The position numbers were made by a program, and so were the translations under genes. DNA of 48,300 bases from a virus: the IMG/VR virus record IMGVR_UViG_3300000839_000001. One strand, written 5' to 3'. The notes beneath the pieces are model-generated. The model saw nothing but the letters and a program-made list of their open reading frames with translations, did not search any database and had not been told where the DNA came from. Shown piece by piece: positions 2,896-34,900 of this stretch (its first letter is position 1; every line of letters starts with the position of its first letter).

Positions 2896-4581
2896 ATGTT
2901 CGGTCAATCAATCACAAACTCTCTGGCGGGTCTCGGCCCATTAGATAACAACGCTATGCAGAACACTACGGACGCAACTGTAGTGAAGAAAACAGAGCAG
3001 ACCTTTTTCCATACAGGCACTTATCTTACAAAGGATAAGTTAGTATGTCCTACACCGGGACTAGGTAAAGGTGGTTTATTATTGGTAGCAAAAGGGGATG
3101 CAGATATAGTAGCTGGAGAGGTTGTAAAATTCTTTGAGAATCGTCTAAAAGCTACGGGAAACCTCTTTTGGTTGTACTCAAGTGGAATATATGAAGCAGT
3201 TAAAAGCGAGCAACTTTGTTCTAGTTTGAAAGACTTTGTAGCTAGGAATGTTCTGTTAGATCAGTGTATCTTACGGAACGGAATGTTGGCAGAAAAACCT
3301 GATAACAGAAATCCTACTTCGCTAGTCAATAAAGACTTTATGCAGCAAATGCTACATGCTTCGCTCATTACAGAACAACAAGAGCGTAATAGATGGATTA
3401 GTGACGAGCCGAAACCTATAGAGTATCAACATGTGTTACCATGTCCCGACGGTCTGTACAATTACATGACGGGGGTATTATATCAAAATGATACAAGGAT
3501 GTTCTATAGGACACAATTGCCTATAACGCCGGACGGACGTGACCCATATCAGGAAGGTTCTCTATACAATAAGTTTATAGAGGAAATCCTGCCTGACCCA
3601 GCGCAAAGAGACTTGTTGCATGAATACATAGGAATCCTTATCGCTGGCGATACTCACTGGCAAAAGTTCCTTATGAAATACGGTGTAGCACAAGCGGGCA
3701 AGGGAGTGATCGACCACTTAATCACCTATCTGGTAGGAGAGAAAAACATAGCGTCAAAAGATGCTAACGACTTCAAAGGAGACTATGCTTTTGAAGGACT
3801 AGAGCGGGCTAGTGTGTGTTTTATGCACGAATTTACCGCGACTGCCGGAAATTTCCGGGGGTTTGTAGATAAGATAAAGAAGGTAGTAGGGGAAGACCCT
3901 GTAAGCGTCAATGCTAAATATATGCCTATTGTACAGATGAAGCTACCATGTAGGTTTGTAGTATCGACCAATAACATGCCTTTTTCAACGGAAATGTCCG
4001 ATGCCTTGAACAGGCGTATGTTGCCATTGCTTTTCACGGTAGAGATACCAGAGGAAAGACGGGATACATCACTGAAAGCAAGACTTACCGGCCCTAATGA
4101 GATTCAGGTATTGCTTTCACATTGTATACAAGGGCTTAAAAGGTTAAATGCAAATGGTAAATTCACCGAACCGCTTTCGACTACCGAGCTGCGTATCAAT
4201 ATCGATACGCAGCTAAACAATATAAAGGCCTTTGCTAGAGACTGCTTGCGACAAGGACAGGCTCAATTTGCTATACCTTGTGCGGTAGTGCATGATGCGT
4301 ATGTCGAGTATTGCCTTGACCAAGACAAAGGACAGATTAAGATAGCTAACTTGTTTGGTAAGGACTTGCGGGACGTATTCCCTAACTTGGTGGCGACTCA
4401 AAGAAGGGTAGGCGGGAAGAATATAAAGGTCTATGAGACTTTATCATTCGTTCCTTTGTATGTAGACTTGCAAAAGCTACTGAACGAGTTTTTCAAAAAG
4501 AAGTTTGGGCGACTTTTAGAACCGGCAGAAATTCAGAAACTTATGGGACTTACTAATACAGAATATGTAGAGGTGGACTAA
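2896..4581 (+). CDS. SF3 (D5 / P4-primase C-terminal family) replicative helicase-NTPase
   Basis: Walker A-like YGVAQAGKGV, Walker B-like VCFMHEF, motif C VVSTNN. RBS gagaggtga. Lies immediately upstream of the prim-pol gene. Confidence 0.7.
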   Translation: MFGQSITNSLAGLGPLDNNAMQNTTDATVVKKTEQTFFHTGTYLTKDKLVCPTPGLGKGGLLLVAKGDADIVAGEVVKFFENRLKATGNLFWLYSSGIYEAVKSEQLCSSLKDFVARNVLLDQCILRNGMLAEKPDNRNPTSLVNKDFMQQMLHASLITEQQERNRWISDEPKPIEYQHVLPCPDGLYNYMTGVLYQNDTRMFYRTQLPITPDGRDPYQEGSLYNKFIEEILPDPAQRDLLHEYIGILIAGDTHWQKFLMKYGVAQAGKGVIDHLITYLVGEKNIASKDANDFKGDYAFEGLERASVCFMHEFTATAGNFRGFVDKIKKVVGEDPVSVNAKYMPIVQMKLPCRFVVSTNNMPFSTEMSDALNRRMLPLLFTVEIPEERRDTSLKARLTGPNEIQVLLSHCIQGLKRLNANGKFTEPLSTTELRINIDTQLNNIKAFARDCLRQGQAQFAIPCAVVHDAYVEYCLDQDKGQIKIANLFGKDLRDVFPNLVATQRRVGGKNIKVYETLSFVPLYVDLQKLLNEFFKKKFGRLLEPAEIQKLMGLTNTEYVEVD

Positions 4582-5648
4582 TGACCCCAAAAGACTACAT
4601 AGATAGGGGCTATTACCTTATTCCCATTAAGCCGGGAACAAAGGAACCTCTATATGATCCGCCCCACTTTACCAAAGGAGCGGCGGATGCTACGCAAGAC
4701 TTGAAGCTGCTAGAGAAATATGAACACTTCGGACTGGTTTGTAACAATTGCACAGTCCTTGACTTCGACCTCTATAAAGGCATAGATGCTGGTATGCAAC
4801 AACTGTTGCAACAGTGCCTAGTCACCGATAGAGAGCGGCATAATGTGACAGTACAGAAAACCCCTAGCGGGGGATTACATATTATATATGCTAAGAATGA
4901 AGGGCTTAGGTTGAACATACCTAACCTTGATATACGCAATAGCAATCAGTATATATGCGTCGATCCGACTCCCGGATATGCTTGGTTCACCCATTGTAGG
5001 GATGGTATTGTCAATCAGAACTTTCCACCAGTCAATATGCTTACTACGTTTATGAGCAATGCTCTAGTAAACAATGAAGTACGTAGGACTGGTTATGATG
5101 TTCCCACAATCAAACCTACTCCCTCACAATGGGAAGGTATAATGCGATGGTTGCAAGGACAAAAGCCCGCTATAAGTGGGAATGGCGGACATAACCAAAC
5201 TTATAGAGTCGCCAGTGATTTGCGGGTTGGTTTCAATCTCGATACAGAGACGGTACACTGGCTACTATTGAACGTATATAATGAGAAGTGCCAGCCCATG
5301 TGGACGGAGAACGAGCTATGGCACAAGGCGAATAGCATTGTCGTATGGACAAAGCCGGGCTATCTGTTGGCTACTCTCGAAGCAAGACAAGAGATACAAT
5401 TACCCTATCGCATAGAGCGGGCGGGAAAGTATCTTTATGAATGTACCGATCCGAAGCATCTTCGGCGAGTGATAACTAAAATGCGGATAGGCTTCGACCT
5501 TCCCGCCGTGGCGGTTCTTAAACTGCTAGAAGTGTATAAACCAAACCTTCTACTTACTACTGAGTTGAAGGACTATGTATACAATCCAGATAACTTACAT
5601 AACCTTCCCGTAGGCTATATGCTTAGGGAGAAAGAAAGGCAACAATAA
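4581..5648 (+). CDS. archaeo-eukaryotic-type primase-polymerase (prim-pol)
   Basis: N-terminal YLIPIKPGTKEP. AEP motif I VLDFDLY (DxD), motif II PSGGLHIIY, motif III NLDIRNSNQYICVDP. ATGA overlap with the helicase gene. Confidence 0.7.
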   Translation: MTPKDYIDRGYYLIPIKPGTKEPLYDPPHFTKGAADATQDLKLLEKYEHFGLVCNNCTVLDFDLYKGIDAGMQQLLQQCLVTDRERHNVTVQKTPSGGLHIIYAKNEGLRLNIPNLDIRNSNQYICVDPTPGYAWFTHCRDGIVNQNFPPVNMLTTFMSNALVNNEVRRTGYDVPTIKPTPSQWEGIMRWLQGQKPAISGNGGHNQTYRVASDLRVGFNLDTETVHWLLLNVYNEKCQPMWTENELWHKANSIVVWTKPGYLLATLEARQEIQLPYRIERAGKYLYECTDPKHLRRVITKMRIGFDLPAVAVLKLLEVYKPNLLLTTELKDYVYNPDNLHNLPVGYMLREKERQQ

Positions 5649-5649
5649 C

Positions 5650-6882
5650 ATGACAAACGAAAGCGAAAAATCTGCATTGAAAACTGTGTATAGAGACAAG
5701 TACAAAGATGACGTTGAAAAAGTGACGTTCGCTATGCTTGCTCTGGATGAAAACATTTCAATCGAGCGAATTGATACGGTTCTCAACACTTGGGAGACTC
5801 TCTATGAAAACAAAGTAACGTGGACTCTAGGCTTTATGTCTGGAGTACAAGCAACCAAGTTGACAGACAAAGAGGTTGCTGCACACCGTTGTGATACAAT
5901 ACAGAACCTAGGCAGATATATCTGGTGGATACTTTCTAAAGATCAAGAGAAAACAACTGCCGATACTGCCGAGCTTTTGAACAACAGTTGTATCTTGTTG
6001 TTTACGTACAACTTGATGGGCTATGAGTTTGCGACGGTAGTTACGAAAGTTGTAGAATACGTCAATAATCCGTCAATCCTCATATACAAGGCTCTGTTTA
6101 AGGAATCGCCAGCAGAGGAACCGCTTCCTTATGATGCTTCACATCCGAAGTGTCAGAAGACTATAGAGGGACAAACTGCTTTTGTGAGTGTAATAGAGGA
6201 GGTTACAGAGATACCGAAGAACCTAACAATCGGCGGAGGTAGACTACAAGAGGTTCCCTTACCTCAAGACAAGTTCAGAGAGTTTCGTATCGCTCTGGAG
6301 CAGCGAAGAGTTTGCATACTTACACCCTTCATTCTGCTACACGATAAACCTGTACAGCATACTTATGAAGAACTGCTCTTGAGTACGTTCCAAATGGCCA
6401 AACGGAAGAACAGCAACTACGGAAACTCGGTAGCCAAGTCACCGTCACTGATTCCTGATATGTATCCGCAGCAAGCAATCCTTGTTCGTATGTCCGACAA
6501 ACTGGCACGTCTGCAATCGCTATATGCAGGTGAGCAAGATAAGGTAGGTGAGTCGCTTCGTGATACATGGGTCGACCTTGGTAACTATCTCTGTCTTTGT
6601 GCGGCGGTAGTGAATCTGCAAAGCCTTATTCCAGAGGAACCGACTGGAGAGCAGTTGATCGATGAACTGGAAGTGGTATACTACAGACTCAAAAGCGAAG
6701 GATATAGGGCTGGGCATAGTCAGAGTAAACCCCATGCTCTGGCTACTGCTCAAGAGGTGATCAATCTGATAAGTAATCAGTCTAACACTCTTGAGGAATC
6801 CTGTATATGTGCAGCAAGGGCTGTATTCTCTTTCCTTACGCTTGACGGAATGAGAAAAACAGAAGATGGCGAAAGAGTATAA
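5650..6882 (+). CDS. hypothetical protein, possibly two all-alpha NTP-pyrophosphohydrolase-like (DUF1599/MazG-like) repeats
   Basis: C-terminal KNSNYGNS...ILVRMSDKLARLQSL...GESLRDTWVDLGNYLCLCA resembles the DUF1599 signature. An N-terminal echo is HRCDTIQNLGRYIWWIL. Confidence 0.35.
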   Translation: MTNESEKSALKTVYRDKYKDDVEKVTFAMLALDENISIERIDTVLNTWETLYENKVTWTLGFMSGVQATKLTDKEVAAHRCDTIQNLGRYIWWILSKDQEKTTADTAELLNNSCILLFTYNLMGYEFATVVTKVVEYVNNPSILIYKALFKESPAEEPLPYDASHPKCQKTIEGQTAFVSVIEEVTEIPKNLTIGGGRLQEVPLPQDKFREFRIALEQRRVCILTPFILLHDKPVQHTYEELLLSTFQMAKRKNSNYGNSVAKSPSLIPDMYPQQAILVRMSDKLARLQSLYAGEQDKVGESLRDTWVDLGNYLCLCAAVVNLQSLIPEEPTGEQLIDELEVVYYRLKSEGYRAGHSQSKPHALATAQEVINLISNQSNTLEESCICAARAVFSFLTLDGMRKTEDGERV

Positions 6883-6893
6883 GGAGTAAACAA

Positions 6894-9191
6894 ATGGCTA
6901 TATATTGGTGGACGCCTTCAGTAGTTTTCCCACAAGGTAGTTTTCTTGCTCTCGATACAGAGACGACCGTTGTTGACTTGACGCGAGAAGTGCCAGCGAT
7001 GGTAGTAGGAGGTATATCTGATGGGCAGAACGTATATCTCTTGAAACCAGAAGACGTGATAAACTTTAGAGCTTACGCGGTAGCGTATAAGTACACATTA
7101 TTTATGCACAACGCCGCATTTGACTTGGCGGTTCTGGAGAAAGTCACGCAAGACGATCTACCCAAAGCTGCTAAAGAGGCAGGAACATCTTGGTATGATC
7201 TAGTAGATAGTAGTCAAGTAGTGGATACAATGCTGTTGTTCCAACTGTTGGAGATTGCTACGAAAGGCAAACATATCCAGAGTAGTTTGAAGTATGTTGT
7301 AGAAACCGTATTCGGTAAACAGGTCGAAAAACTAGCCCTTGATAAAGACGGTGATGTGATCCGAATGTCTTTTAGCAAATGGATAGGGCGTTTGGAGCAG
7401 ATGACCCAAGACTACGTAGACTACGTAGCGGACGATATTCTGTTGACCTATCAAGTAGGTATGCACCTATTGACTACCATTGCCGGTTTTGTGCAAGAGA
7501 GGGGTAGGAAACAAGATACGTTCGGCAATCTCACCATGTCCGAAATAACAGACGCATGGGGCAAATACGGCCCCCTAACGCATCATATTCAGCTAAAAGG
7601 AGCAATAGTCCTACATCAAATTACCTTGAATGGTATGTATGTAAACAGCGCCGCTGTAGAGCGCTTTATTGCTGAGGTACACAAAGAGGTTGAACAAATA
7701 GGGGCGAGACTTGCAACAGAATATGGATTTTTCAAAGGCCCCGGTTCCTCTGGAGTTTTGCAAGGTTTCTTTACACAGGTCGATCAAATAATAGTTGCCG
7801 AGCGTAGGAAACAAGGACTGCCTGTTACAGAGGTCTCGCAAGGAGTGTATACATTTCTACCTAGAACCGCCACCGGGAAATTTCAGACTGGGGCAGAAGT
7901 CATAGGTGAATATGAACTGCATAGCTACTCTGACTTTTTCGAGTTATACCTCAAGCACCAGACTTTAGAGAAGGAGTTAAATAGCTTTCTCAAGAAGTTA
8001 TACGGCGGCTATGGTATGTTCGGCAAACAGGACATAACGGTGCATCCATCGTTTACACCGATACTTAGCACCGGGCGAGTAAGTAGCTGGGGTGAGATCA
8101 ATTCTCAGAACATACCGAAGGTTAAAGGGATGCGAGAGTGTTTCGTAGCTAGAGAGGGTCACTGCTTTATCAATGTTGACTACTCCGGCATCGAAATGGT
8201 CACTCTGTGTGATGCGGTACGTAACCAGTTCCATGTAGATAGTCATGTCATGCAGGAAGCCATCAATAGTGGTAGAGACCTGCATAAAGAGACTGCGGCG
8301 TTCCTTGTAGGACATGATGACGTTACCAAAGAAGAACGGCAGAAAGCAAAGGCTGCAAACTTCGGACTCCCCGGCGGGATGGGAGGCAGGAGGCTCGCTA
8401 CCTACATGAGAGGGTATGGTGTTCGGATTACCGAGGAAGAGGGGCAAGCTATTGCGGATGGATGGAAGACTAAGTATCCAGAGATGCGGTACTTCATCAA
8501 TGAACTAGAGCCGCCAGCACAGGCTATTTTAGCACAGGCGGTATATAGTGAGACTGGTTGGTGTGCTTACAATGAAGCCCCTACAACCGAAGAAGGCTGG
8601 CGAATCTGTGGTTACATGACTGTAAAGCTGTGTACAGAACAAACCCCAGTTTCTAGTAGTGGCAACCCCTACGATATAAACATGGTGATGGGCGGTAGGA
8701 CATGTGTACAGAGCTGGGCTATAAAGAACGGTATAGCTGATTTACTGCCTGCAGGGTTTCCTCGATATCCAATCAGTAAGTCGAATATGGAGACTTTACT
8801 AGGTAGGCTGGGTTGGAAGTATACAGCAACAGCAACCGGCAGATATAGACGCACCAGTCGATTCACTGAAAAGCGGAATACTATCTTTCAAGGACTGGCT
8901 GCGGACGGGATGAAGCTCGCTAGTTACCTGATATATAGAGCAGGTTACAAGATAGTGAACATCGTTCATGACGAAATTCTGGTAGAAGTGCCAGACAACC
9001 GAGAGAGCTATACCGAAGCCTATAATGAGATATGTAACTTCATGCGGCAAGGTATGCACGAAGTAGTGCGAAATACTAGGGTAGAGGTAGAAGGCGCTAT
9101 TACTCGCTGTTGGAGTAAAGATGCCAAGCTACTTATGGATGATGACTATAACTATTTGATATGGGAGTATAACAATGCGACAGTTAGTTAG
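6894..9191 (+). CDS. family A DNA polymerase with 3'-5' exonuclease domain
   Basis: Exo I LALDTETT, Exo II HNAAFDLAVL, Exo III YVADDILLTY. Pol motif A DYSGIEMVTL, motif B RQKAKAANFGLPGGMG, motif C IVHDEILVEV. RBS aaggag. Confidence 0.9.
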   Translation: MAIYWWTPSVVFPQGSFLALDTETTVVDLTREVPAMVVGGISDGQNVYLLKPEDVINFRAYAVAYKYTLFMHNAAFDLAVLEKVTQDDLPKAAKEAGTSWYDLVDSSQVVDTMLLFQLLEIATKGKHIQSSLKYVVETVFGKQVEKLALDKDGDVIRMSFSKWIGRLEQMTQDYVDYVADDILLTYQVGMHLLTTIAGFVQERGRKQDTFGNLTMSEITDAWGKYGPLTHHIQLKGAIVLHQITLNGMYVNSAAVERFIAEVHKEVEQIGARLATEYGFFKGPGSSGVLQGFFTQVDQIIVAERRKQGLPVTEVSQGVYTFLPRTATGKFQTGAEVIGEYELHSYSDFFELYLKHQTLEKELNSFLKKLYGGYGMFGKQDITVHPSFTPILSTGRVSSWGEINSQNIPKVKGMRECFVAREGHCFINVDYSGIEMVTLCDAVRNQFHVDSHVMQEAINSGRDLHKETAAFLVGHDDVTKEERQKAKAANFGLPGGMGGRRLATYMRGYGVRITEEEGQAIADGWKTKYPEMRYFINELEPPAQAILAQAVYSETGWCAYNEAPTTEEGWRICGYMTVKLCTEQTPVSSSGNPYDINMVMGGRTCVQSWAIKNGIADLLPAGFPRYPISKSNMETLLGRLGWKYTATATGRYRRTSRFTEKRNTIFQGLAADGMKLASYLIYRAGYKIVNIVHDEILVEVPDNRESYTEAYNEICNFMRQGMHEVVRNTRVEVEGAITRCWSKDAKLLMDDDYNYLIWEYNNATVS

Positions 9192-9453
9192 AAGTCCGAA
9201 ACGTACTTGCAAAGACTGCATCCACTATAAAGAGTTACCTGTTTCGGTATACCATGAAGGTAAGGCTCGATACCTCTCTGACATAAACTATGGAGAGCAG
9301 GTCAAGCTGCCTACCTGCATAGCAAAGTGGAAAGACGGGAATCTGTATGAGATGGCTAGGTTACTTACACCAATGGCCATAGAGATACAGTGCAAGGAGC
9401 CGTGTTGCGAAGACTTCAACGACCAAAGGGAAGTGAGCGATACTGAGTTATGA
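9175..9453 (+). CDS. small Cys-rich protein, member 1 of the CxxC family
   Basis: TCKDCIHYKE ... PTCIAKW ... CKEPCCEDF. Start overlaps the polymerase gene end. Confidence 0.6.
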   Translation: MRQLVRSPKRTCKDCIHYKELPVSVYHEGKARYLSDINYGEQVKLPTCIAKWKDGNLYEMARLLTPMAIEIQCKEPCCEDFNDQREVSDTEL

Positions 9454-9617
9454 GTGCTATGAAAGCTGAAACTATAGTGTTTGTACTCATATCCGTGGCG
9501 ACTCTTATACTAATAGGCGGTCTAGTATGGCCTAGGCCAACCTTTTACATCGAGGACGAAGATGCAGAGGAACAGAGAACTCCTAGAGGCTCTGAGGATT
9601 ATAGAGATTCCTAAAGA
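9450..9617 (+). CDS. possible 55-aa single-pass membrane protein (below the ORF-track cutoff)
   Basis: My translation: MSAMKAETIVFVLISVATLILIGGLVWPRPTFYIEDEDAEEQRTPRGSEDYRDS. ATGA overlap with the upstream stop. It overlaps the start of 9562..9825 by 56 nt, so one of the two starts is uncertain. Confidence 0.3.
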
Positions 9618-9825
9618 GTATCCACAGCGAGGTACTATAGCATGTCCTACATGTATGTTCTTCGGCGGACTCGCAGAGGAGTTGTCAGGCAGCCTAGAGT
9701 TACCTATAAATATATGTAACAATCCAGCAGTTGAGACGGATACGGCTAGGTGTGCCTTCGGTTGTCGGCTGTACATAGCTATAAAGGAGTTTCATCCTAG
9801 AAGGAGCAATCATTACTATGACTAA
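9562..9825 (+). CDS. small Cys-rich protein, member 2 of the CxxC family
   Basis: ACPTCMFFGG ... NICNNPAV ... ARCAFGCRLY. Confidence 0.5.
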   Translation: MQRNRELLEALRIIEIPKEYPQRGTIACPTCMFFGGLAEELSGSLELPINICNNPAVETDTARCAFGCRLYIAIKEFHPRRSNHYYD

Positions 9826-10018
9826 ACATCCAACTTGTGAGCAATGTAAATGGTACGAAGGTCTAAAGGTTAGACCCGTAAATGAAATACCGAAAATTGA
9901 GGAACTATGCAACCATCCCGCTGGCGTTTCTACAAGAGGTTACTACAGAGCGTGTAGAGATTACGAACCACTAGAACCGCCAGTCAAGAGTAGATTCGAG
10001 GATGACGATGAATTTTGA
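9818..10018 (+). CDS. small Cys-rich protein, member 3 of the CxxC family
   Basis: TCEQCKWYEG ... LCNHPAG ... RACRDYEP. Start overlaps the upstream stop. Confidence 0.6.
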   Translation: MTKHPTCEQCKWYEGLKVRPVNEIPKIEELCNHPAGVSTRGYYRACRDYEPLEPPVKSRFEDDDEF

Positions 10019-10226
10019 AGCTACCAAACGATGTATACGCTGCCGTTCTGCGGTAGCAGGAAAGGCTAAAGAGGTTGTTCCGTGGTTACTAGATGCTAAG
10101 GACTGGGATAAACAGGTTGTACTCTGTTGGCGGTTCGTGCAGGTACAGGGGATCAATAACAGAGCCTGTGAACACTTTGAATTGCACCCTAGATATATAG
10201 AGGCTACAGATGATAGCGGTACTTAA
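10002..10226 (+). CDS. small Cys-rich protein, member 4 of the CxxC family
   Basis: RCIRCRSAV ... VLCWRF ... RACEHFEL. Confidence 0.6.
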   Translation: MTMNFEATKRCIRCRSAVAGKAKEVVPWLLDAKDWDKQVVLCWRFVQVQGINNRACEHFELHPRYIEATDDSGT

Positions 10227-10398
10227 TTGCTGTGAACAGTGTAGGGCCTATACCTTTATGGTATTACATGATCGCTTTACTGGAGAGTATTACTTAACCG
10301 ATACAATAGGGTGTACGTTACATGGGTGTCTTACTAGACCAGATCAAATATGTATACATTTCGCCCTGAAAGATATGAAGAATGAGCAAGAAACATAG
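10210..10398 (+). CDS. small Cys-rich protein, member 5 of the CxxC family
   Basis: CCEQCRAYTF ... IGCTLHGC ... QICIHFAL. Confidence 0.6.
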   Translation: MIAVLNCCEQCRAYTFMVLHDRFTGEYYLTDTIGCTLHGCLTRPDQICIHFALKDMKNEQET

Positions 10399-10771
10399 TG
10401 AGTCAGACTTTACGAAACGCGTGACGGATCAGTTACGACCTTTTGGCTTTGTGATAAACATGGTAGTCTATAAAGGAATGAATACCTCTGGAACACCGGA
10501 TAGGTACTTTCATTCTGCTTGGTGGCGGGGTTGGCTTGAATTTAAGGCGGCCAAAGGCAGGCTTTCGGACTTGCAAAAGGCCACAATTCATTCATTAAAC
10601 AAACATTGCCCGTGTACGGCGTTTGTGATCCGTGAAGCCGTTGACGGTCATCATGCGGTCGAAACGGAAACCGGGGCAGTTTTGGGCCATTTTCGGACGG
10701 GCAAAGAATTGGTCGATTTATTGCATACTCTATATCAACAGAGTATACAGGAAGGTTGGATATGGAAATGA
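10382..10771 (+). CDS. VRR-NUC domain nuclease (PD-(D/E)xK fold)
   Basis: GTPDRYF...WLEFKAAKGRLSDLQKATIHSL matches the VRR-NUC D...ExK...Q core. Confidence 0.65.
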   Translation: MSKKHSESDFTKRVTDQLRPFGFVINMVVYKGMNTSGTPDRYFHSAWWRGWLEFKAAKGRLSDLQKATIHSLNKHCPCTAFVIREAVDGHHAVETETGAVLGHFRTGKELVDLLHTLYQQSIQEGWIWK

Positions 10772-11124
10772 ATACAAAAGATATAAAGCTAGTCTGTATA
10801 GATAGCAATTCATACGATAGCAGAAAATGCTGGATATTAGGCAGACAGATATTCTGTGAGACGCTACCGTCACTAGGTCATACTATGGAAGAAGTCACCT
10901 ACAATGTACGTACTAACACTTGGACGGCACAATTTCCAGAGAAACTAGGATTCGCCGATATGTTCCTAAAGATTTCTGTTACCGAGACCGGGCTACACAT
11001 CCTTATACAGACCGAGACCTTTGGATTGTTCGCTACCTATAAGAAACAAGCAATTGTATGTCTTTCCACTTTCGACTGGCGCTTCTATAGCGAGTTGTCA
11101 GATATTATGAAGAACATTATTTAG
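10756..11124 (+). CDS. hypothetical protein
   Basis: 122-aa ORF, co-oriented, overlapping start. Confidence 0.6.
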   Translation: MDMEMNTKDIKLVCIDSNSYDSRKCWILGRQIFCETLPSLGHTMEEVTYNVRTNTWTAQFPEKLGFADMFLKISVTETGLHILIQTETFGLFATYKKQAIVCLSTFDWRFYSELSDIMKNII

Positions 11125-11144
11125 AATCGCCACCGGATGAGCTA

Positions 11145-12191
11145 ATGAGTAACGATACAGAGAAGGTTGTGCTAACTAGCAAAGGTTACCCTAAAGAATA
11201 CGTACCAGCAGTAGAGGAAGATATGTCACACATAGGACTACCGAACGTAATGCTCGCCCCAAACCAGCAAGCAGACTTGACGACTATAAAGTATCCGGCT
11301 TTTTGTTCATACAAAATGGACGGGATTCGAGCCATTTTCATCAATGGCGAGCTACGTAGTCGTAACATGAAATTTCACCCTGAGACTATACAGCAACACT
11401 TTCAGAACTTATGTGACTTTACCAGAGCCGCCAACTGTGTTTTGGATGGGGAGATATACCTGCACGGGTTGAAGTTCAATGAGATTAAAAGCACTATGCA
11501 CGATACATTGAAACTTGCTGCATGTCCTCTGGAGTTCCATTGTTTCGACATAGTAAGCACAGACGAGTGGCTTGGTGCTTCTGTAACCCCGTGGCATAAA
11601 CGCTACGCTACTCTGGAGTTATTCAGACAGGCATATACCTATGAGTTTGGTGACGACCGCTTTGTGCAGGTAGATCAGACATTACATAACAAGCCAGAGA
11701 CTATCCAAGACTTAATGGAGTTGTCTCTGGAAGAGGGGTTTGAGGGCATAATGATTAGAGACCCTTACTCGCTCTATAAGCATGGGCGAGCTACTATCAA
11801 GGAGAATACCTTCCATAAGTTGAAAGAGTTTGCTACCGTTCGGGCCGTCATAACTGGCTTCAATTATAAAGAAGTCTTGAAAGCAGATGCCCCAATGGGA
11901 GTAGATGCAATGGGATATACAGAGCGAGATCATCGCAAAGATAGCCGGGAAGTGATAGATGAAATTGGCTCTATCAACCTTGTCTTATCTGACAATACCT
12001 ACTTTCCAGTAGGTACGAAACTCTCTGCTACTTTTGCAAAGAACATGGAAGCCTACGCTCTGCGTTGTGCTATCACTACAAAGAACTTTAACTTCTATCT
12101 AGGGAAAGAAGTGTACGTCACCTTTCAACCCTGTGGCAGTGTAGATGCCCCTAGGTTTCCTAGAATTGTGAGACTGACCGGTGAAGTATGA
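11145..12191 (+). CDS. lig: ATP-dependent DNA ligase
   Basis: Motif I SYKMDGIRA (KxDG), motif III VLDGEIY, motif IV EGIMIRDP, motif V FHKLKEF. Confidence 0.85.
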   Translation: MSNDTEKVVLTSKGYPKEYVPAVEEDMSHIGLPNVMLAPNQQADLTTIKYPAFCSYKMDGIRAIFINGELRSRNMKFHPETIQQHFQNLCDFTRAANCVLDGEIYLHGLKFNEIKSTMHDTLKLAACPLEFHCFDIVSTDEWLGASVTPWHKRYATLELFRQAYTYEFGDDRFVQVDQTLHNKPETIQDLMELSLEEGFEGIMIRDPYSLYKHGRATIKENTFHKLKEFATVRAVITGFNYKEVLKADAPMGVDAMGYTERDHRKDSREVIDEIGSINLVLSDNTYFPVGTKLSATFAKNMEAYALRCAITTKNFNFYLGKEVYVTFQPCGSVDAPRFPRIVRLTGEV

Positions 12192-12248
12192 ACCGGGTAA
12201 TCTCTTATTACTAACGCACTGCGTGTACATAGATACTGGAGAAGTCTA

Positions 12249-12473
12249 ATGGAACTACAATGTAAGGATTGTAAGTATTGCGAACTTAATGCTAGGTTGT
12301 ATATTAAGCCTAGAGATTATCCAGACGGTACAAGTCCTGTAATGTATAAGAGAGGTCTGACTGTTATAAAGATGGCTATATGTTACCTTCCAAAGAAGCG
12401 TCAATCGCCTTTCTCAGTTTCTAAAACTCTCCCGTCCTCTAAAGCATGTAAAAAGTTTGAAAGAAAGGAGTAG
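12249..12473 (+). CDS. small Cys-rich protein, member 6 of the CxxC family
   Basis: QCKDCKYCEL ... AICYLP ... KACKKFERKE. RBS ctggagaag. Confidence 0.55.
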   Translation: MELQCKDCKYCELNARLYIKPRDYPDGTSPVMYKRGLTVIKMAICYLPKKRQSPFSVSKTLPSSKACKKFERKE

Positions 12474-12481
12474 CCCTTACA

Positions 12482-12559
12482 ATGTTGTTTGCTATAGTTA
12501 TTGTGTTTGTACTCACCATATGCGCACTGGCGGTTCTTACTGCAAAGGATAAGTTATGA
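12482..12559 (+). CDS. possible 25-aa hydrophobic micropeptide
   Basis: My translation: MLFAIVIVFVLTICALAVLTAKDKL. Its stop overlaps the next ATG (ATGA). Confidence 0.35.
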   Translation: MLFAIVIVFVLTICALAVLTAKDKL

Positions 12560-12651
12560 TAACCCTTATTGCCTTGATAGTTTCAATTGTTACTAATGTT
12601 GTATTAGTAGGTATCATTTTTAAGATACTTAGTTTTTTCCGTTGGCGTTAA
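12556..12651 (+). CDS. possible 31-aa single-pass membrane micropeptide
   Basis: My translation: MITLIALIVSIVTNVVLVGIIFKILSFFRWR. Confidence 0.35.
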   Translation: MITLIALIVSIVTNVVLVGIIFKILSFFRWR

Positions 12652-12671
12652 TTAGAAAGTAGGTGACTATT

Positions 12672-12836
12672 ATGTCAGAACCTCCCGTTCAACGTATCAT
12701 TTACGAACATCGTAACCCTACAGCAGAAACCGGGTGTGGATGCCTAATCCTGATTCTGCTTTCACCTTTTATTATCTCGGCGATATTGTTTGTCGCCTAT
12801 TGTGCAAGTAGTATACTAGGACTCCCTACCGATTAA
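12672..12836 (+). CDS. possible 54-aa single-pass membrane protein
   Basis: My translation: MSEPPVQRIIYEHRNPTAETGCGCLILILLSPFIISAILFVAYCASSILGLPTD. RBS gaaagtaggtga. Confidence 0.45.
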   Translation: MSEPPVQRIIYEHRNPTAETGCGCLILILLSPFIISAILFVAYCASSILGLPTD

Positions 12837-12846
12837 GCAGAGGTAC

Positions 12847-13002
12847 ATGATGGACGGATTCGACGATTTCGATTACTATGAAGAACATAATCGCAAACAC
12901 GAGAGACAGGGGTTTACAGCTAAGGAGTTCATAGTTCTATTACTAGCTGGGTGGTTAGGTTACCTTGCCGCCTCTGCCCTCGCTACATACCTAGGAGTTT
13001 AA
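12847..13002 (+). CDS. possible 51-aa C-tail-anchored membrane protein
   Basis: My translation: MMDGFDDFDYYEEHNRKHERQGFTAKEFIVLLLAGWLGYLAASALATYLGV. RBS gcagaggta. Confidence 0.45.
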   Translation: MMDGFDDFDYYEEHNRKHERQGFTAKEFIVLLLAGWLGYLAASALATYLGV

Positions 13003-13003
13003 T

Positions 13004-13585
13004 ATGTCTGACTTAATTAGCAGCAAAGCTGCTGAAGACAGTCCTAAAGGACTGACACTAGATGCTACAATAGAGATAGTAGCTCCTACAATACCGCCTG
13101 TGGTCAATATATCAGATATGCCTGCCAACAAGCTAACGGTATTTACCAGAGAAGTATATATGGAGGATGGGATATACTCCCTTACAATCGTATTCAGAAC
13201 CGCCACTGTGTGGAACGTGGTATACATCGACACGGTGGCGCTTCTACTCCAGAATAAGAACAGCGTACCGACTGAGCTGCCTAGACCTAAATGGGCCGAG
13301 ACACAATCGGCAAGTTGCCCAGTAGTATCTAGCTGGGCGATGGTATTCGATAAACCCTACCCAGTACATTTAGATAGGGATATGTTTTTTCATCCTAGAC
13401 ATATTCCCCTACTGGGTCAAGAACACCTTCCGATGTTCGTGCCAAAACGGTTGACGGAGTACGCTACAGAACGTAGGTGTACAGAGGCTACACTGGAGGA
13501 GGCGCTAAAAATGCTAGATAACCTAGACCAGAAGTACCCTACTGCATGTCTTTCGGTATCTCTAGTACCTCTCCGTCGATCGTAG
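13004..13585 (+). CDS. hypothetical protein, last gene of the plus arm
   Basis: 193-aa ORF. Its 3' end converges on and overlaps 13539..14021(-). Confidence 0.6.
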   Translation: MSDLISSKAAEDSPKGLTLDATIEIVAPTIPPVVNISDMPANKLTVFTREVYMEDGIYSLTIVFRTATVWNVVYIDTVALLLQNKNSVPTELPRPKWAETQSASCPVVSSWAMVFDKPYPVHLDRDMFFHPRHIPLLGQEHLPMFVPKRLTEYATERRCTEATLEEALKMLDNLDQKYPTACLSVSLVPLRRS

Positions 13586-14021
13586 GTACTCCAACTACAT
13601 CATTAGGAAAGACCAACATATTGTTCACGATGGTCTTTCCTTCTTCTTTTTCCTCTTGGATTCCAGCAATAAGACCGAACGCTTCTTTCATGGCCATTGG
13701 ACTACCGTTCAGGGCATGTTTGAACAGTGCTTCTTTCAACGCAATCTGTGACATTACTCTAGCGGCTCTATAGGCCAGACCACAAGGATTATCTGAAGCT
13801 AGTAATTCCTCTACTACCTCAACAGAGATAGGTACTGCCGGCGGGGGAGAAGCGCCATTGACCAAATCGGCAATGTCCTTTGCAGGTATGTTCAACCTAC
13901 CAAACTCTCGGAAGCGTTCCGAGAGTTTAATCCAGAACGCGTCTTGCGTTAGATACTTACCCTGATACAATATATGTCCCGAAAGGTCGGGAGCTTCGGA
14001 TTCTATACACTCGCCGTACAT
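13539..14021 (-). CDS. hypothetical protein, last gene of the minus arm
   Basis: 160-aa ORF. The helical C-terminal half (ALKEALFKHALNGSPMAMKEAFGLIAG) vaguely recalls small DNA-binding or terminase small subunits, but I cannot support that call. Confidence 0.55.
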   Translation of the reverse strand: MYGECIESEAPDLSGHILYQGKYLTQDAFWIKLSERFREFGRLNIPAKDIADLVNGASPPPAVPISVEVVEELLASDNPCGLAYRAARVMSQIALKEALFKHALNGSPMAMKEAFGLIAGIQEEKEEGKTIVNNMLVFPNDVVGVPTIDGEVLEIPKDMQ

Positions 14022-14023
14022 AG

Positions 14024-14233
14024 TTAGTCCTTAGGTTCTTTCTGTTTATAGAATATACATTTAGAAGGCCCGCAAAAACGTGGTCGAAAAGGACGGCCTC
14101 CATAGGCCCCCTTACCTTCTTCAATCTCTTTATTGCTGCATCGTATATAGCAATAGTCACAAGTAGGGCAATACCCACTTTCTGGTGAGTCTATAGCATA
14201 TATACAAGAAGCGCCACTCTGGGTGTTGCTCAT
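14024..14233 (-). CDS. small Cys-rich protein, member 7 of the CxxC family (on the late strand)
   Basis: YCPTCDYCYIRC ... FCGPSKCIFYKQKE resembles KACKKFERKE of 12249..12473. The start was moved to the ATG at 14233, which forms an ATGA overlap with the upstream stop. Confidence 0.5.
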   Translation of the reverse strand: MSNTQSGASCIYAIDSPESGYCPTCDYCYIRCSNKEIEEGKGAYGGRPFRPRFCGPSKCIFYKQKEPKD

Positions 14234-18141: not shown

Positions 18142-21045
18142 CTAACCGCCTACGTTTACCGTTGCTGCTTGTGTCGCCAGTGCTGGAAGTTGTTGCTCTA
18201 TATTCCTTAACGCCGGAGCAATCTGATCTTTCAGAACATCATTATTTGCCTTGTTAGTTCGCCAAATTTCACTACTAGCATCGAGTATCTTTTTCGTATA
18301 GTCCAGTTGAGTATCCGCTACAGAGTCGGTAGTCCACACTCTACTCGCTAGACGCATAGCGTCCATACCTTGATAGGCTTGTACAGAGCTTTGTGTACCA
18401 AGTTTATCTGTTACCTTCTGTATGTCTTGTAAAAAAGAGTTATACGATTCGGCGTCTTTGATATATGCAGTATCGCCGGTGGCGACTGCTTTCTCAAGGA
18501 ATTGCTCTATACCTCTGCTGGCAAACTGCATTTGTCCCTGTCTATCAAGGCGTCCCCCTTGAGAGGGCTTGAGTTTAGCATACTCAAGATTGAGCTGTCT
18601 AGCTTCTCCCCCTAAGTCACGGGCTTGTTTCAATCGATTCTGTTCTACTTTAGCGAGAGACTTATACTCACTCTCTAGTTGCTGCAAAGTTTCTTCTGTA
18701 ATACGTGTCCATTTCGCAGACCCGATCTTACCTTTTATCTCGTCGCTAAGTCGTTGTGCATCTTTTAGAGCAAACGCCGCAGACTGGAAGCCTACAACTG
18801 TAGAGCGAGTAATATCGTCAATAAACTTACTATGAAGTTCTCTCAGATCGTAGATATTCTTTTCGGCTGTCTCTGCATCTACTGGCTGCCTAACAGGTGT
18901 GGGAAGTGGTTCGGTCACAACAGGTTGTACAGCTTTATTTTTTTCATCCTCTTGCTGTTGTAGATATACTTTATTTGCATCAATGTCTTGTTGCGTTACA
19001 GGCATAGCTGCCTGACTACCGTGAATCTTTCCACTGATTCTAGTGCCAAAGTAGGTAGCCATTAACTCGTCAAGAAACGCTCCTTGCCATGCCGCTCTAG
19101 CTTGTAGCTTAGCGCCTCTGGAAGTAGACTGTCCTTGTTGGGCACGTAGCTGTATATCTGCCGCTACTGCATTCTTTGCAGCTCCTTGTGCAGCAATAGG
19201 TGACCCGATAATTTTAGTCACCCACTGACTGAACTCCATAAGAGACTTGATCACACTCTGTAGGACTGGAGCCATATCTACAAACAATTGCTGGTTCTCT
19301 TTGAACCACTTACTCCAACTCTCTGCTGTCTCTATAGAGAACTGTTGAAACATCAGTACCACCGGCGCTATAGCTTCGCCGAGGTCTTCCATAGCTGTAA
19401 TCCATGCAGCATCCACAGCTTGCTGTTGGAGCTTTAGAGACCCTGCCGCCATATCTCGATCAAACTGTCCTGCTGTCTTAGCAGTCTGATCGAGAATAGA
19501 TTTCAAAATTACATACTGTTCAAGCTGCTGGGTATCTATATCTCTGTACCCAGTATTCTGCATACGATTGACTTCTCGATTCACATCTCGCTGTGAAAGC
19601 AGGACACCAGCTTGAGTGCGTAATGGGCGAAACTGCTTATTCATCGCACTCTGTATCGCAGAGAGCATATCATTAGTCTCGCCAACGAATGCGGCTCCTA
19701 AGTCGGCAGCTCTTCCGTGCATAGTCTCTGTGTACTGGAGGGCCTGTGATTCTCCAAGACCTTTTTCTTGGAGAGCCATAGACATCTGCACATACGACTT
19801 ATACACTTCGCCCATAGCAACTTTGAAGTGCTTATGGAACTCTCTAGCTGATCCTTCTGCTGCATCGCCTATATCGGAAAACGTCATCTTAAACGATGAC
19901 TGCATATCCTGCAATTCAGCAAAGGGTTTAGCCAGCGAGTACAGGCCCGATGATATTTTCGAGACCATGAGAGGTATTGCGGCAGTTATGGCAAGGAAGG
20001 CCGTAGCACCAGCCACAGGCCAAACGAATGCCGCTACGGGGCCTAGAACACGGGCAAATACCCCTGTCATCGGAATGAGTCGTTCTAACGAACTGATAAA
20101 CCGTGTCGCCCCTTCTGCCAAGTACACCATCGTAAAGGCATTAGCCCCCCGCATACCAACACCCATGAGAGCTATAGAGCGCATCATCTCTGTAAACCCT
20201 CTACCGCCTCCACCGCCCCCTCGGCTACCGCCGCCTCCACCTCCACCGCCGCCTCGGCTACCTCCCCCTCCTCCAGTACCTCCCGGAAATCTGGCACTTC
20301 GGAAAATAGCATTAGCATAGTTAGCTCGACTTACAGTAAGCGTAGTGAGCTTTACAGAGTTGAATGTAGATGTAGCAAAACGGGTACTCCCTGAAAAAAT
20401 AGTTCCAGAGAACCGAACACCTGACATAGTTGTTGGTAGCTTTACGGGGGCCGTCCGAAGCACTGCACCGCTAAAAGTGGCCCTAGCGAAATGACTTGTA
20501 GAGTAGCGAGCGACTCTGAAATCTGCATCAAGAAACGTCCCTCTAGTATAACTTGCTGTTGAAAAGCTAGTCCTACCGAACGTCACTGACCCAATCATTG
20601 CTTTAGATGCACTGAAATCTACAGACTTAATATGCGTAAGTATCGCACTCTTTGCAGTAAACTGATCGGTAGCGATTGACGTAACTTTGAGCTTCTCGAT
20701 CTCTAAAGACTTCTGAGTTTTGGCTGGTTCAGGGAACTTGATAGCTGCAACCTTGCGAGCAAGTTCGTCGACCTGTATGCCCATCGCTACACAGAGTTTC
20801 GTCCAAGATACAGAGATAGCGATCATCCCTGTCTCGAAAGAGTTCCATACTGCCGAAAGGTCTGGGGCACTTGTCGCTCCTGCTCCCGGCGTAGGTATAG
20901 AGGCTCCTTTACCTTTCTTAGAACCGCCAACGGGAGAGATGGTAGTCTTTAGGTCGACTCCAGCTACCTCTTGTTTTAGCTTCTCCAGAGCTTCATAGGC
21001 AGCAGAGGTATCAAGCGTGATGCCAACTGCAATAACGTCACTCAT
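18142..21045 (-). CDS. tail tape measure protein with an N-terminal pentapeptide-repeat block and a poly-Gly tract
   Basis: 967 aa, the largest tail-module gene. It lies directly after the G/GT chaperone pair and has long helical Q/A/E-rich segments. Confidence 0.8.
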   Translation of the reverse strand: MSDVIAVGITLDTSAAYEALEKLKQEVAGVDLKTTISPVGGSKKGKGASIPTPGAGATSAPDLSAVWNSFETGMIAISVSWTKLCVAMGIQVDELARKVAAIKFPEPAKTQKSLEIEKLKVTSIATDQFTAKSAILTHIKSVDFSASKAMIGSVTFGRTSFSTASYTRGTFLDADFRVARYSTSHFARATFSGAVLRTAPVKLPTTMSGVRFSGTIFSGSTRFATSTFNSVKLTTLTVSRANYANAIFRSARFPGGTGGGGGSRGGGGGGGGGSRGGGGGGRGFTEMMRSIALMGVGMRGANAFTMVYLAEGATRFISSLERLIPMTGVFARVLGPVAAFVWPVAGATAFLAITAAIPLMVSKISSGLYSLAKPFAELQDMQSSFKMTFSDIGDAAEGSAREFHKHFKVAMGEVYKSYVQMSMALQEKGLGESQALQYTETMHGRAADLGAAFVGETNDMLSAIQSAMNKQFRPLRTQAGVLLSQRDVNREVNRMQNTGYRDIDTQQLEQYVILKSILDQTAKTAGQFDRDMAAGSLKLQQQAVDAAWITAMEDLGEAIAPVVLMFQQFSIETAESWSKWFKENQQLFVDMAPVLQSVIKSLMEFSQWVTKIIGSPIAAQGAAKNAVAADIQLRAQQGQSTSRGAKLQARAAWQGAFLDELMATYFGTRISGKIHGSQAAMPVTQQDIDANKVYLQQQEDEKNKAVQPVVTEPLPTPVRQPVDAETAEKNIYDLRELHSKFIDDITRSTVVGFQSAAFALKDAQRLSDEIKGKIGSAKWTRITEETLQQLESEYKSLAKVEQNRLKQARDLGGEARQLNLEYAKLKPSQGGRLDRQGQMQFASRGIEQFLEKAVATGDTAYIKDAESYNSFLQDIQKVTDKLGTQSSVQAYQGMDAMRLASRVWTTDSVADTQLDYTKKILDASSEIWRTNKANNDVLKDQIAPALRNIEQQLPALATQAATVNVGG

Positions 21046-31992: not shown

Positions 31993-34900
31993 CTAAATCC
32001 TTACTGTGATGTATATAGTGTTAGTAGGTACAACGCCATTTGCCCGAAGGTTCATAGAACCAGCAGTCTGTTGAATTACCTGTATATTGGCTTGTTGAAT
32101 CGCCAGTGCTTGAGCTTTACTTGCCCCACTAGGAATACCAATATCTCCGTCCTCTGTACCATTCATTTCTGGTATTTGGACAGTTACCTCATCATTTACC
32201 CATGCAGTAGGAAGAATCTCTATATCGAAACTTCCGCGTCTGTTCGTACTTCCTGTCATAAATGAACCGACAATCTGGTCAATGTCTGCCTTTCGAGTAA
32301 CTCCACTGCACAGGAATTGGGCGTCTCCTGATTTTATAATCTGTCCCCACTGGTCTGTATTGTGGTCATACATACTGACATTGTACAGAGCCAGCCTCCC
32401 TGCGTTGTTGCTGCCAGTATTGTTAGCAGCATCTTTAATACCTGCTCCACTGCCGCTATTGGCATCTCCCGACCATCGAGAGTTGCTTATATCGACATGA
32501 TAATAGCATACAGAGGGAGTACGTTCGATAAGTATAAAGGTACTATTGTCTACTCTTACGTCTGTTTCATACTTCGAGTTTAACGGATTTCCGATTATCA
32601 AATAGCAGTTATCTACCTTATTCAAGTAGCAACCACCTCCACTCACCATCACTCGCGTAATAGCAGTTGGGCGAGTCTCTCCTACTCGCATGATATTGTC
32701 CAGAATAACTCTCTGGTAGTTAGGGATCAAGCTGCTATAGCAAATAAGCTGATTCGCGTTAATCATAAAACAGTTCTGTGCAGTGATGTTACCACCTACT
32801 GTCCACATAGGACTGGTAAGATTAAGCAACATACAGTCCAGTGCATACAGGTCACCGTAAATACTACTACATGTAGCTCCCTGTAGTAACACACTATCTC
32901 GTGCCGTAATAGGCATGTTATAGTTGATAGCCTGTGCATGTGCCGAACTAGGTACTGTACTGGCAAACGTAAACATACAGTTAGTGATGAACACTTCAAA
33001 TCGTCTATCATAAGAAGACGGATACTGGAACGCCTTAACACATATATTATCTACCGACAACCGAGCATCTGTCATAACAGAGGTAGTATTCATCGCGATA
33101 GATGCAATACTGACTTTATACTCTGTATCCAGAACATCAAGCAACCGTTCTGTATCAATACCTTTGAATGAAGCATGGAGCCGCCAAGGGATGCTGATGC
33201 TACCGTATGCTCCCGGATGTAGGCTAAACAGTACAGATGTATGTCCACCTGCATCTGCCAACGTAATAGCTTCTTGCAAGTCTTGGAAAGGTTTTGCAAT
33301 AGTCCCATCCGGTACAATACCCCCTATTGAACCGTCAAGTAAATAGCCACCCTCTTGTGCAACATTAACCACTGCTGTAAAAGGAACTCCGGCAGGTGTA
33401 CCGCCGCCACTTCCTAATGCAGCATTGATACCTGCCAAGTGGCTTTTCACATCACCAGCAGTAGCCGTATAGTTCGTTGGGGTATAGTTAGCCCATACGT
33501 CTGCTGCTTGATTGCCTTGTGGAAGTCTTGTACCGTTAAGTACGTCGATACTTGCATCACGCACTACACCGGAGAGCATATAGGAGGCAGTGCCAGACTT
33601 GTTGATTGCTACATATCCCTGTAGGGTATCTACAAACATAGACACATCAAACATACGTAAAGAACCGGCATTATGTGCAAATACTGGAGAATCTCCAAAT
33701 TTACCACCGTATATGCTCACTTCGCACGCATGTGCTGCATCTGTAGTAATACCTAACATGTCACAATCTCTGAACGTATATGGCCACGGTCGTACAGAGG
33801 CTAGGTTACTATCCCCAAAGAAATTAACCCTGCTTAGGGTAGTGTTGGTAGCTGCAAATGCTTGACTCTTAACATCCACTCTGAAAAAGTTACAGGCGGT
33901 TGCACTTACTGAGCTATTGACATTGAACTCTACATTATCACTACTAGAGCCAGTAACGTAGGTATTCTGCCATTCTGCATGGCCTTCGATATGATATATG
34001 CCATATATCGAACAGTCCACAAGTTTCGTACTGTCTTGATACCATATACTAGCGATAGTCGAGCCGGTTCCACCGAGAAAAACAGTATTTATAGCTTTGA
34101 TTTCTCCAGCCCCGGCATATCCTACGTTTGTTGTAGGTAGGCCTGACCATTCTATCCAAGAATTGAGAAAGATCAATTCGTAATAATCCTCTGTAGGATG
34201 TTTTACATAATTAGTTCTGATGTTGCTTGCATACAGAGAAGTTACATTGTGAGGGCTACCTGCACCAGCCTGTGAAATACTAGCAATATGTACTCTATAC
34301 ATACCACTTCCCCCGGAACCAGATACCGCTTTATGTGTGGTATCCATGCCTTGGATAGCTACATTCACGTCTTTTGGAATAACCAAGTTACCGTATGTTC
34401 CGGGATATACTTGGAACAACGGGTTTACTTCGTCATATCCTACAGTAGACTCTGTAACTACAGCCTCTTGTATAGACTTATAGGGGAACAGAATACTGCC
34501 GTCCGGGTATACTGGATGGCCTTGGTCGTCTGTCTTACTACCATCAAGCAGATAGCCATCTACCTCCGAAACATGGACAATACCGTTTGTAGTAAGGTCA
34601 ATATCCAGAGAAGGAGTGTTTATAGCGTCCCATGTCTCTGTACCATCTGCATGGATGGTAAGAGCGAGCTGCACATCTGGAGTAGCTCCCTCTGGTCTCT
34701 GGAGTTTTTTGTTCACATCGACGTTATCTACCAGAACTTCTCCAGAATTTATGAGAGCGTACCATTCGTATCCATCTGGTTTGATACAATCTGTAATATG
34801 TACAGTAGCCGAGTTGGCATATACAAAAGGATAATTACCTACTCGCACAGGTTCCCATGTGCATAACCGCAAGGCCGAGCGATTCTGGTGTATACTATGA

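Follow-up and report, generated by a model that had tools for sequence, protein, structure and literature searches.

Do the small cysteine-rich open reading frames (ORFs) that accompany the replication genes of a metagenome-assembled phage form a family of proteins, and if so, of what kind? The question is raised by IMG/VR record IMGVR_UViG_3300000839_000001, whose 48,300 nucleotides (nt) constitute our window; the same sequence is found in contig k141_96548 (48,368 bp) of ENA entry ERZ27245261. Phage genomes are rich in tiny cysteine-rich ORFans, which are usually dismissed as 'zinc-finger-like hypotheticals'. The original prediction for this locus, made from the DNA alone, had nevertheless singled out seven such ORFs as a lineage-specific expansion of a four-cysteine protein family. 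All seven, o1 to o7, are present at the coordinates it had given; they encode 62-92 amino acids (aa) and share a skeleton that consists of an N-terminally placed CxxC, a single cysteine in the middle and a last cysteine that is followed by x2-[FY]. The set belongs to a familiar kind, the small cysteine-rich accessory proteins of phages, yet this family had not been recognised before. We tentatively favour the view that o1 to o7 are real genes for diversified mini-binders of one phage clade, each with a single four-cysteine (Cys4) site and expressed with the replication module, although we would not give it quite half of the total weight.

The array starts within the end of polA, the gene of a family-A DNA polymerase (6894-9191, plus strand, as are the other replication genes and o1 to o6). 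o1 (92 aa, 9175-9453), whose first 17 nt coincide with the end of polA, has a Shine-Dalgarno-like GGGAG before its start. Its cysteines are at positions 12, 15, 48, 73, 77 and 78 and its motif can be read as TCKDCIHY ... PTCIAKW or IEIQCKEP ... CCEDF, the third ligand being either C48 or C73, which lies in a context (IEIQCKEP) akin to the IEELCNHP of o3. An ATGA junction couples o1 to a cysteine-free ORF of 54 aa (9450-9614) with one predicted transmembrane helix, which lies within the array but outside the family, has the top codon-usage score among the small ORFs and overlaps o2 by 53 nt. o2 (87 aa, 9562-9825; ACPTCMFF ... INICNNPA ... RCAFGCRLY) has GAGGA 5 nt upstream of its ATG, and o3 (66 aa, 9818-10018; TCEQCKWY ... 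ELCNHPAG ... RACRDYE), about 630 nt downstream of polA, is preceded by AAGGAG and has an acidic C-terminal tail whose last residue is phenylalanine (SRFEDDDEF, 9998-10015). They are followed by o4 (74 aa, or 72 aa with a start at 10008; 10002-10226; RCIRCRSA ... VLCWRF ... RACEHFE) and o5 (62 aa, 10210-10398; CCEQCRAY ... GCTLHGC ... QICIHFA), the latter with a 17-nt overlap at each side, and then by the gene of a VRR-NUC-like nuclease (10382-10771).

From polA to the nuclease gene the successive overlaps are 17, 4, 53, 8, 17, 17 and 17 nt. The five family members that the original prediction had placed head to tail behind the polymerase gene are thus there, but with the membrane ORF the overlapping run comprises six ORFs. 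Overlaps of exactly 17 nt occur at polA/o1 (9175-9191), o3/o4 (10002-10018), o4/o5 (10210-10226) and o5/nuclease (10382-10398) and have no sequence in common; that between the nuclease gene and the gene following it is 16 nt. The repeated 17-nt overlap may reflect a favoured geometry of coupling, or it may be fortuitous. The two outlying copies are also located as predicted. o6 (74 aa, 12249-12473; QCKDCKYC ... AICYLP ... KACKKFE), a basic protein with an isoelectric point of 9.6, begins 57 nt past the stop of an ATP-dependent ligase gene (11145-12191), with GGAGAAG as its Shine-Dalgarno-like site. o7 (69 aa, 14024-14233, minus strand; YCPTCDYCYIRC ... FCGPSKCIFY) contains seven cysteines and is a doubtful member; its start, which one gene caller used, shares an ATGA with the stop codon of a 568-aa late gene. 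Six copies lie within the replication module, among the genes for a primase-helicase, a Prim-Pol, PolA, the nuclease and the ligase, and share its orientation; o7 is coupled to the late gene.

Cysteine makes up 5.4-10% of the seven proteins, compared to 1.2% of the 9,958 residues encoded by long genes, an enrichment of about 5-8 fold. Six-frame translation of the window gives 288 ORFs with 40 aa or more, of which the regular expression C..C.{15,40}C.{5,30}C..[FYW] matches o1 to o6 alone; o7, which has both end motifs, is missed due to the short distance between its third and fourth cysteines (C3 and C4). A looser form of the expression retrieves the seven ORFs and, apart from four antisense ORFs inside large genes, no others in the window, and 26 unrelated loci with a total of about 1,700 ORFs yielded a single match to either form. 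Shuffling the residues of each protein produced the skeleton together with C4xx[FYWH] in 0.4-7% of trials per protein, most often in the cysteine-richest ORFs (o7 7%, o5 4.5%). Even though the pattern was chosen post hoc, with the data already seen, its co-occurrence in seven neighbouring small genes is far beyond chance.

The putative third and fourth ligands are lone cysteines 11-24 residues apart (just 4 in o7). Aromatic residues flank the ligands at C2+2 or C2+3 and at C4+3, and a proline often follows C3. The aromatic that had been predicted at C2+2 throughout is found there in four of the seven proteins; o1 and o5 carry it one position later and o4 has no aromatic after C2. Net charge ranges from -3 to +10 across the set, with o1, o2, o3 and o5 acidic, and each copy has a different C-terminal tail.

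Several features indicate that these ORFs are real protein-coding genes, from which we infer that they are translated. The 1.2 kb after polA are tiled without gaps by same-strand ORFs that have coupled junctions and purine-rich Shine-Dalgarno-like sites upstream of their starts, and two independent gene callers called the ORFs as genes. The codon-usage frame score is positive for o2, o4, o5 and o6 and lower for antisense ORFs, although its power is weak at 60-90 codons.

Beyond the cysteine scaffold the sequences are highly divergent, as had been noted. The window contains no DNA repeats between copies and therefore no sign of a recent duplication. To compare the copies at the level of profiles, each ORF was sought among 1,213 ORFs with a hidden Markov model (HMM) built without it. 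o3 was the first non-training match (E 1.5e-4) and is the best-supported member, followed by o6 (rank 15, E 0.076) and o2 (rank 17, E 0.45), with o5 and o4 at ranks 25 and 29. An HMM made only from the members in L003, a related phage contig described below, had o2 as its top window match (E 6e-4), with o6 and o1 also in the top 8 of 429 ORFs. The window-only HMM ranked L003 members 1st, 4th and 8th, all with E >0.5. Further weak matches in the window (12457-12552, 34857-34997 and 44400-44567) were inspected and dismissed as noise. Judged by these profiles, common descent of o2 to o6 is likely, o3 being supported, o2 and o6 less clearly so, and o4 and o5 weakly.

The family is an orphan, without detectable relatives beyond a small group of phages. 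Neither its members nor the family profile matched the four-cysteine module to anything in Pfam, PHROGs, NCBIfam or the PDB sequences. A word-indexed search of 5.8 billion clusters with a 15-sequence profile returned the query members only, and an exhaustive HMMER search of 1.84 billion representative proteins with a 14-sequence profile returned the training members plus one repetitive protein of 1,471 aa, which we took as noise. o1 and o7 are ORFans when searched singly, and tblastn comparison of o1 to phages yielded noise. In the literature, we found nothing relevant on small cysteine-rich paralogues in phages, on small iron-sulfur (Fe-S) proteins of phages, or on high-potential iron-sulfur proteins (HiPIPs) in phages. 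The original prediction had likewise not recognised the family.

Relatives of the phage were sought through its polymerase. The closest PolA sequences are from three uncultured phage contigs, L002 (46% identity), L003/L004 (41%) and L005 (39%); L012 is the same phage as L004, and L013 the same as L005. Two of these phages have sets of their own, which provide the best evidence that the module is real. In L003/L004 the skeleton occurs in at least seven small proteins: five skeleton matches in L003 (5215-5508, 5573-5791, 5788-6006, 8984-9331 and 9373-9567), P0129 (8674-9000), which consists of two tandem copies of the module, and P0126 (9587-9982), a fusion of the module with a C-terminal zinc ribbon matching phrog_6504; a further candidate with the skeleton is at 19266-19448. 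L005 has two to three such proteins, among them one with the module after an N-terminal zinc ribbon (1253-1609) and one of 128 aa with the module at its C-terminus (6868-7254). Judging from the tandem copy and the fusions to zinc ribbons, the four-cysteine module behaves as an autonomous domain. Recent paralogy is clear in L003 (P0124, P0126 and P0121, E 5e-19 to 1e-6; P0122 and P0127, E 8e-13).

In L003/L004 and L005 the module genes lie upstream of polA, whereas the array of the window lies downstream. Since the relatives have their own sets at a different position, the proposed lineage-specific expansion is supported, in the form of independent expansions, in two lineages, of a module that is defined by its motif. 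In L002/L011, which have the polymerase with 46% identity, the family is absent within 10 kb either side of polA. An alignment-based scan found further relatives at only 26-29% identity, none of which has the motif, and scans of metagenomes and genomes revealed no additional phage with the family.

Within the clade, the interval from polA to the nuclease gene is a variable island (window 9191-10382, L002 12232-13483, L003 12210-15777, L005 5222-6236), whose content, for the most part cysteine-rich proteins, differs from genome to genome: the array in the window and multi-zinc-ribbon proteins of 221-302 aa in the relatives. The relatives also have, downstream of polA, a small protein with the motif Y-x-P-T-[PA]-E-E-I (L002 12588-12800, L003 14119-14496, L005 5222-5569), which we did not find in the window when checking by eye.

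Further genes of the replication module are upstream of polA and, like it, on the plus strand: a D5/DUF5906 primase-helicase (2896-4581) and a Prim-Pol (4581-5648). A SNF2 helicase (45010-47187) is encoded farther along the plus-strand arm. Two other plus-strand genes of the module encode a sigma-factor-like protein (1656-2159; phrog_1740, E 8e-15) and a protein of 410 aa (5650-6882; phrog_1485, E 2e-17) whose weak DUF1599 domain is of the 'nucleotide modification associated' type. They are a hint that the phage directs transcription and perhaps modifies DNA. The two arms converge at 13539-13585, where a 193-aa ORF (13004-13585, plus) and a 160-aa ORF (13539-14021, minus) have their last 47 nt in common, with no terminator-like site between them; a promoter and terminator scan found nothing that exceeded shuffled sequences.

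At the DNA level, megablast against 50,697 GenBank phage records gave no near match to the region from polA to ligase. The polymerase itself is at most 25% identical to any GenBank phage record in tblastn searches, and an IMG/VR scan with PolA revealed no close relatives. In species-representative genomes, the relatives that were found are all from Planctomycetota (L007, L027-L033; 32-36% identity), namely from genomes of Pirellulimonas, Rhodopirellula, Fimbriiglobus and Planctomycetaceae and from metagenome-assembled genomes, and some of them adjoin an integrase. As all these cellular relatives are planctomycete, the host of the phage is plausibly a planctomycete too. To our knowledge, this host group has almost no characterised viruses.

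How might such a set of proteins work? Under the reading that we favour, a core of about 45-70 aa would hold one metal ion or Fe-S cluster through the CxxC knuckle and the two lone cysteines. Only this ligand cage would be constrained, leaving loops, charge and tails free to vary, so that each copy would present a different surface; the spread of net charge is consistent with this. Because the overlapping junctions are tiled into the replication module, translation would be coupled and the proteins would probably be made together with the replication proteins. We envisage them as small binders of host or phage macromolecules, serving in host take-over, anti-defence or as replisome accessories. 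The roles originally suggested, in anti-defence, host take-over or polymerase modulation, are plausible from the genomic context in a variable island next to polA, and this island together with the patchy distribution of the family is more readily reconciled with accessory, fast-evolving binders than with electron carriers or core factors of replication. For o3 one may speculate further, given that its tail, FEDDDEF, recalls what we take to be the polymerase-binding acidic C-terminal tails of the bacterial single-stranded DNA-binding protein (SSB) and of T7 gp2.5 and gp4. What distinguishes this set is its unusual cleanness, with one minimal ligand cage copied at least seven times in each of two related phages while every other position can vary.

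Several results weigh against diversified Cys4 binders of common descent. The codon-usage score is about zero for o1, o3 and o7, and support for translation from the ratio of non-synonymous to synonymous substitutions is lacking because the databases searched contained no close orthologues. Pairwise comparison of the sequences in the window revealed no clear similarity, o2 and o3 coming closest (E 0.003-0.008, in tiny databases), and the leave-one-out profiles did not recover o1 and o7 (ranks 100 and 190 of the 1,213 ORFs). AlphaFold2 models computed with the family alignment for the o3 core and P0121 had mean predicted local distance difference test values of 45.5 and 45.8, so that neither the fold nor a clustering of the cysteines can be verified from them. 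Also, none of our results ties any copy to a target or a defence system. The codon-usage scores, from a measure that discriminates weakly at these lengths, and the lack of homologues from which purifying selection could show would be compatible with frames that are open by chance, in DNA that is non-coding or coded in another way. We consider this very improbable in view of the gapless tiling with its Shine-Dalgarno-like sites and coupled junctions, the extreme specificity of the motif, the recurrence of the module in related phages and the lower codon-usage scores of antisense ORFs.

The failure to recover o1 and o7, together with the insignificant pairwise similarities, does imply that homology may not extend to all seven. 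They could be a heterogeneous set, in which o2, o3 and probably o4 to o6 are true paralogues and o1 and o7 unrelated cysteine-rich ORFans that came to resemble them by convergence or chance. o7 in particular stands on the other strand in the late arm and departs from the rest in its seven cysteines, its ferredoxin-type motif and its C3-C4 spacing; the shuffled skeleton is commonest for the cysteine-richest ORFs, o7 and o5; and the third ligand of o1 is ambiguous. However, all seven proteins combine the CxxC near the N-terminus with C-x2-[FY] at the last cysteine, the skeleton occurs in no other plausible gene of the window, and the L003-only HMM placed o1 among its top 8 matches. We therefore regard a heterogeneous set as possible, if rather doubtful. 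Common ancestry of all seven, as in the original description of them as paralogues, is not demonstrated, o1 and o7 in particular being members by their motif alone.

As to what the proteins would bind, we give zinc the greatest weight, an Fe-S cluster almost as much, and neither of them rather little. In one alternative to diversified binders, they would be mini-domains with structural zinc that attach to DNA or RNA and, as small proteins, regulate or assist the replication and transcription of the phage. Such a role would suit their embedding in, and co-orientation with, the replication genes, the strongly basic character of o6 and of several members in the relatives, the fusion to or proximity of the relatives' modules to classical zinc ribbons and helix-turn-helix proteins, and the acidic tail of o3, which recalls those of SSB and gp2.5. 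Yet charge is inconsistent across the set, four of the seven being acidic, no match was found to any nucleic-acid-binding zinc-finger family, and the ligand geometry is atypical of zinc fingers. The patchy distribution in close relatives, including the absence near polA of L002, argues against a core role in replication. We thus judge this alternative unlikely. With zinc in the cage, the set would offer a compact scaffold of natural origin on which binders diversify and, from its variable island beside polA, possible factors for anti-defence or take-over.

The original prediction had compared the proteins to zinc ribbons. Proteins with zinc ribbons or pairs of CxxC knuckles, such as Zn_ribbon_8, Lar and the haloviral CxxC proteins, are common in the genomes of phages and archaeal viruses; they are similarly small, have an N-terminal CxxC, occur in multiple copies and have an early or replication location as here, and true zinc ribbons adjoin or are fused to the module in the relatives. 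In contrast, a second knuckle (C..C.{8,40}C..C) is found in none of the seven window proteins, but only in the additional zinc-ribbon domains of P0126, of the L005 protein at 1253-1609 and of L002 12232-12576. The knuckle signature CPxCG is mostly absent and the seven have no profile matches to these groups. Lacking the second knuckle and, largely, CPxCG, the seven are unlikely to be classical zinc ribbons, and this part of the prediction was not upheld. Two lone, distant cysteines flanked by aromatics appear more typical of Fe-S ligation.

This points to a second alternative, in which the proteins are Fe-S mini-proteins whose four cysteines hold a HiPIP-like cubane [4Fe-4S] cluster shielded by the aromatics. 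They might then be redox switches, switches sensitive to oxygen or nitric oxide, or electron carriers for phage enzymes. We compared them to five HiPIP sequences (1CKU, 2HIP, 1HPI, 1HLQ, 1ISU), each 100% identical to its PDB entry. HiPIPs (PF01355) have a similarly small core, of about 45 aa, that binds the cluster, and the same ligand order C-x2-C ... C ... C, with an aromatic or hydrophobic residue at C2+2 or C2+3, an aromatic at C4+3 and a proline 3-4 residues after C3 (CTHPD in 2HIP, CNHPA in o3). The cysteine order and the C4+3 aromatic are found in all seven phage proteins and the C3-C4 spacing is 11-15 in o2 to o5, next to 13-15 in HiPIPs. Their co-linear pattern, C-x2-C-x-aromatic-aromatic, hydrophobic-C-x2-P and C-x2-aromatic, is also that of HiPIPs, and conversely all five HiPIPs match a regular expression that was built on the phage proteins.

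Other comparisons with HiPIPs were less favourable. The C2-C3 loop has 20-33 residues or more in the phage proteins, compared to 13-16 in HiPIPs, and loops are altogether longer and more variable. hhalign yielded local probabilities of 1.7-2.4%, aligning only the CxxC, and a global probability of 0.6%, even though in this mode the four cysteines and the C4+3 aromatic were aligned. Neither a Pfam scan of the 7 and a further 15 sequences at E-values up to 10 nor the family profile against PDB sequences found a HiPIP. The signature C-x(6,9)-[LIVM]-x(3)-G-[YW]-C-x(2)-[FYW], which we take to be the PROSITE-type pattern of HiPIPs, matched five of five HiPIPs and none of 19 phage proteins, which have no G-[YW] before C4. 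They also lack the N-terminal HiPIP region and, by eye, a twin-arginine leader at any of the seven N-termini, and their context is cytoplasmic, whereas HiPIPs are periplasmic electron carriers. We therefore find no support for homology to HiPIPs, which may show how the site works, rather than the family to which the phage proteins belong. As for the Fe-S mini-proteins as such, seven redundant electron carriers are hard to rationalise, and the window proteins that we scanned include no Fe-S-dependent enzyme. Taking these points together with the likenesses, we consider them unlikely, marginally more so than the nucleic-acid-binding domains.

The comparison to [4Fe-4S] ferredoxins is confined to few members. 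The full motif CxxCxxCxxxC is found only in o7 (YCPTCDYCYIRC; C30-x2-C33-x2-C36-x3-C40), where it lacks the following proline, while an extra neighbouring cysteine creates CxxCxxC in o6 and o7 and in two L003 members. Searches against ferredoxin families had no significant match, the best being that of one member to YfhL (E 0.07). For the family as a whole, regular expressions for ferredoxins, WhiB proteins and zinc ribbons were all rejected.

The nearest functional analogues on an Fe-S reading are the WhiB-like (Wbl) proteins, [4Fe-4S] proteins of actinobacteria and actinophages that interfere with host regulation via a sigma factor. They too are phage-encoded four-cysteine proteins, of about 70-100 aa, and offer an analogy for a small binder stabilised by a cluster. 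They differ in their motif, C-x14-22-C-x2-C-x5-C, which is absent from all seven proteins, as are matches to Wbl families in Pfam or NCBIfam, and in their host lineage, which here is probably Planctomycetota and not Actinobacteria. If the cage does hold an Fe-S cluster, phage-encoded Fe-S regulators would extend beyond the actinophage WhiB proteins to phages whose PolA points to Planctomycetota. The boldest form of this idea is a new class of phage Fe-S proteins, in which cytoplasmic HiPIP-like [4Fe-4S] modules were duplicated and diversified into cluster-dependent, redox- or oxygen-sensitive binders that reprogram the planctomycete host or block its defences. We regard this as a long shot, less probable than any of the alternatives above except that of chance open frames; if true, the strategy of the actinophage WhiB proteins would have been invented twice, independently and with two different folds.

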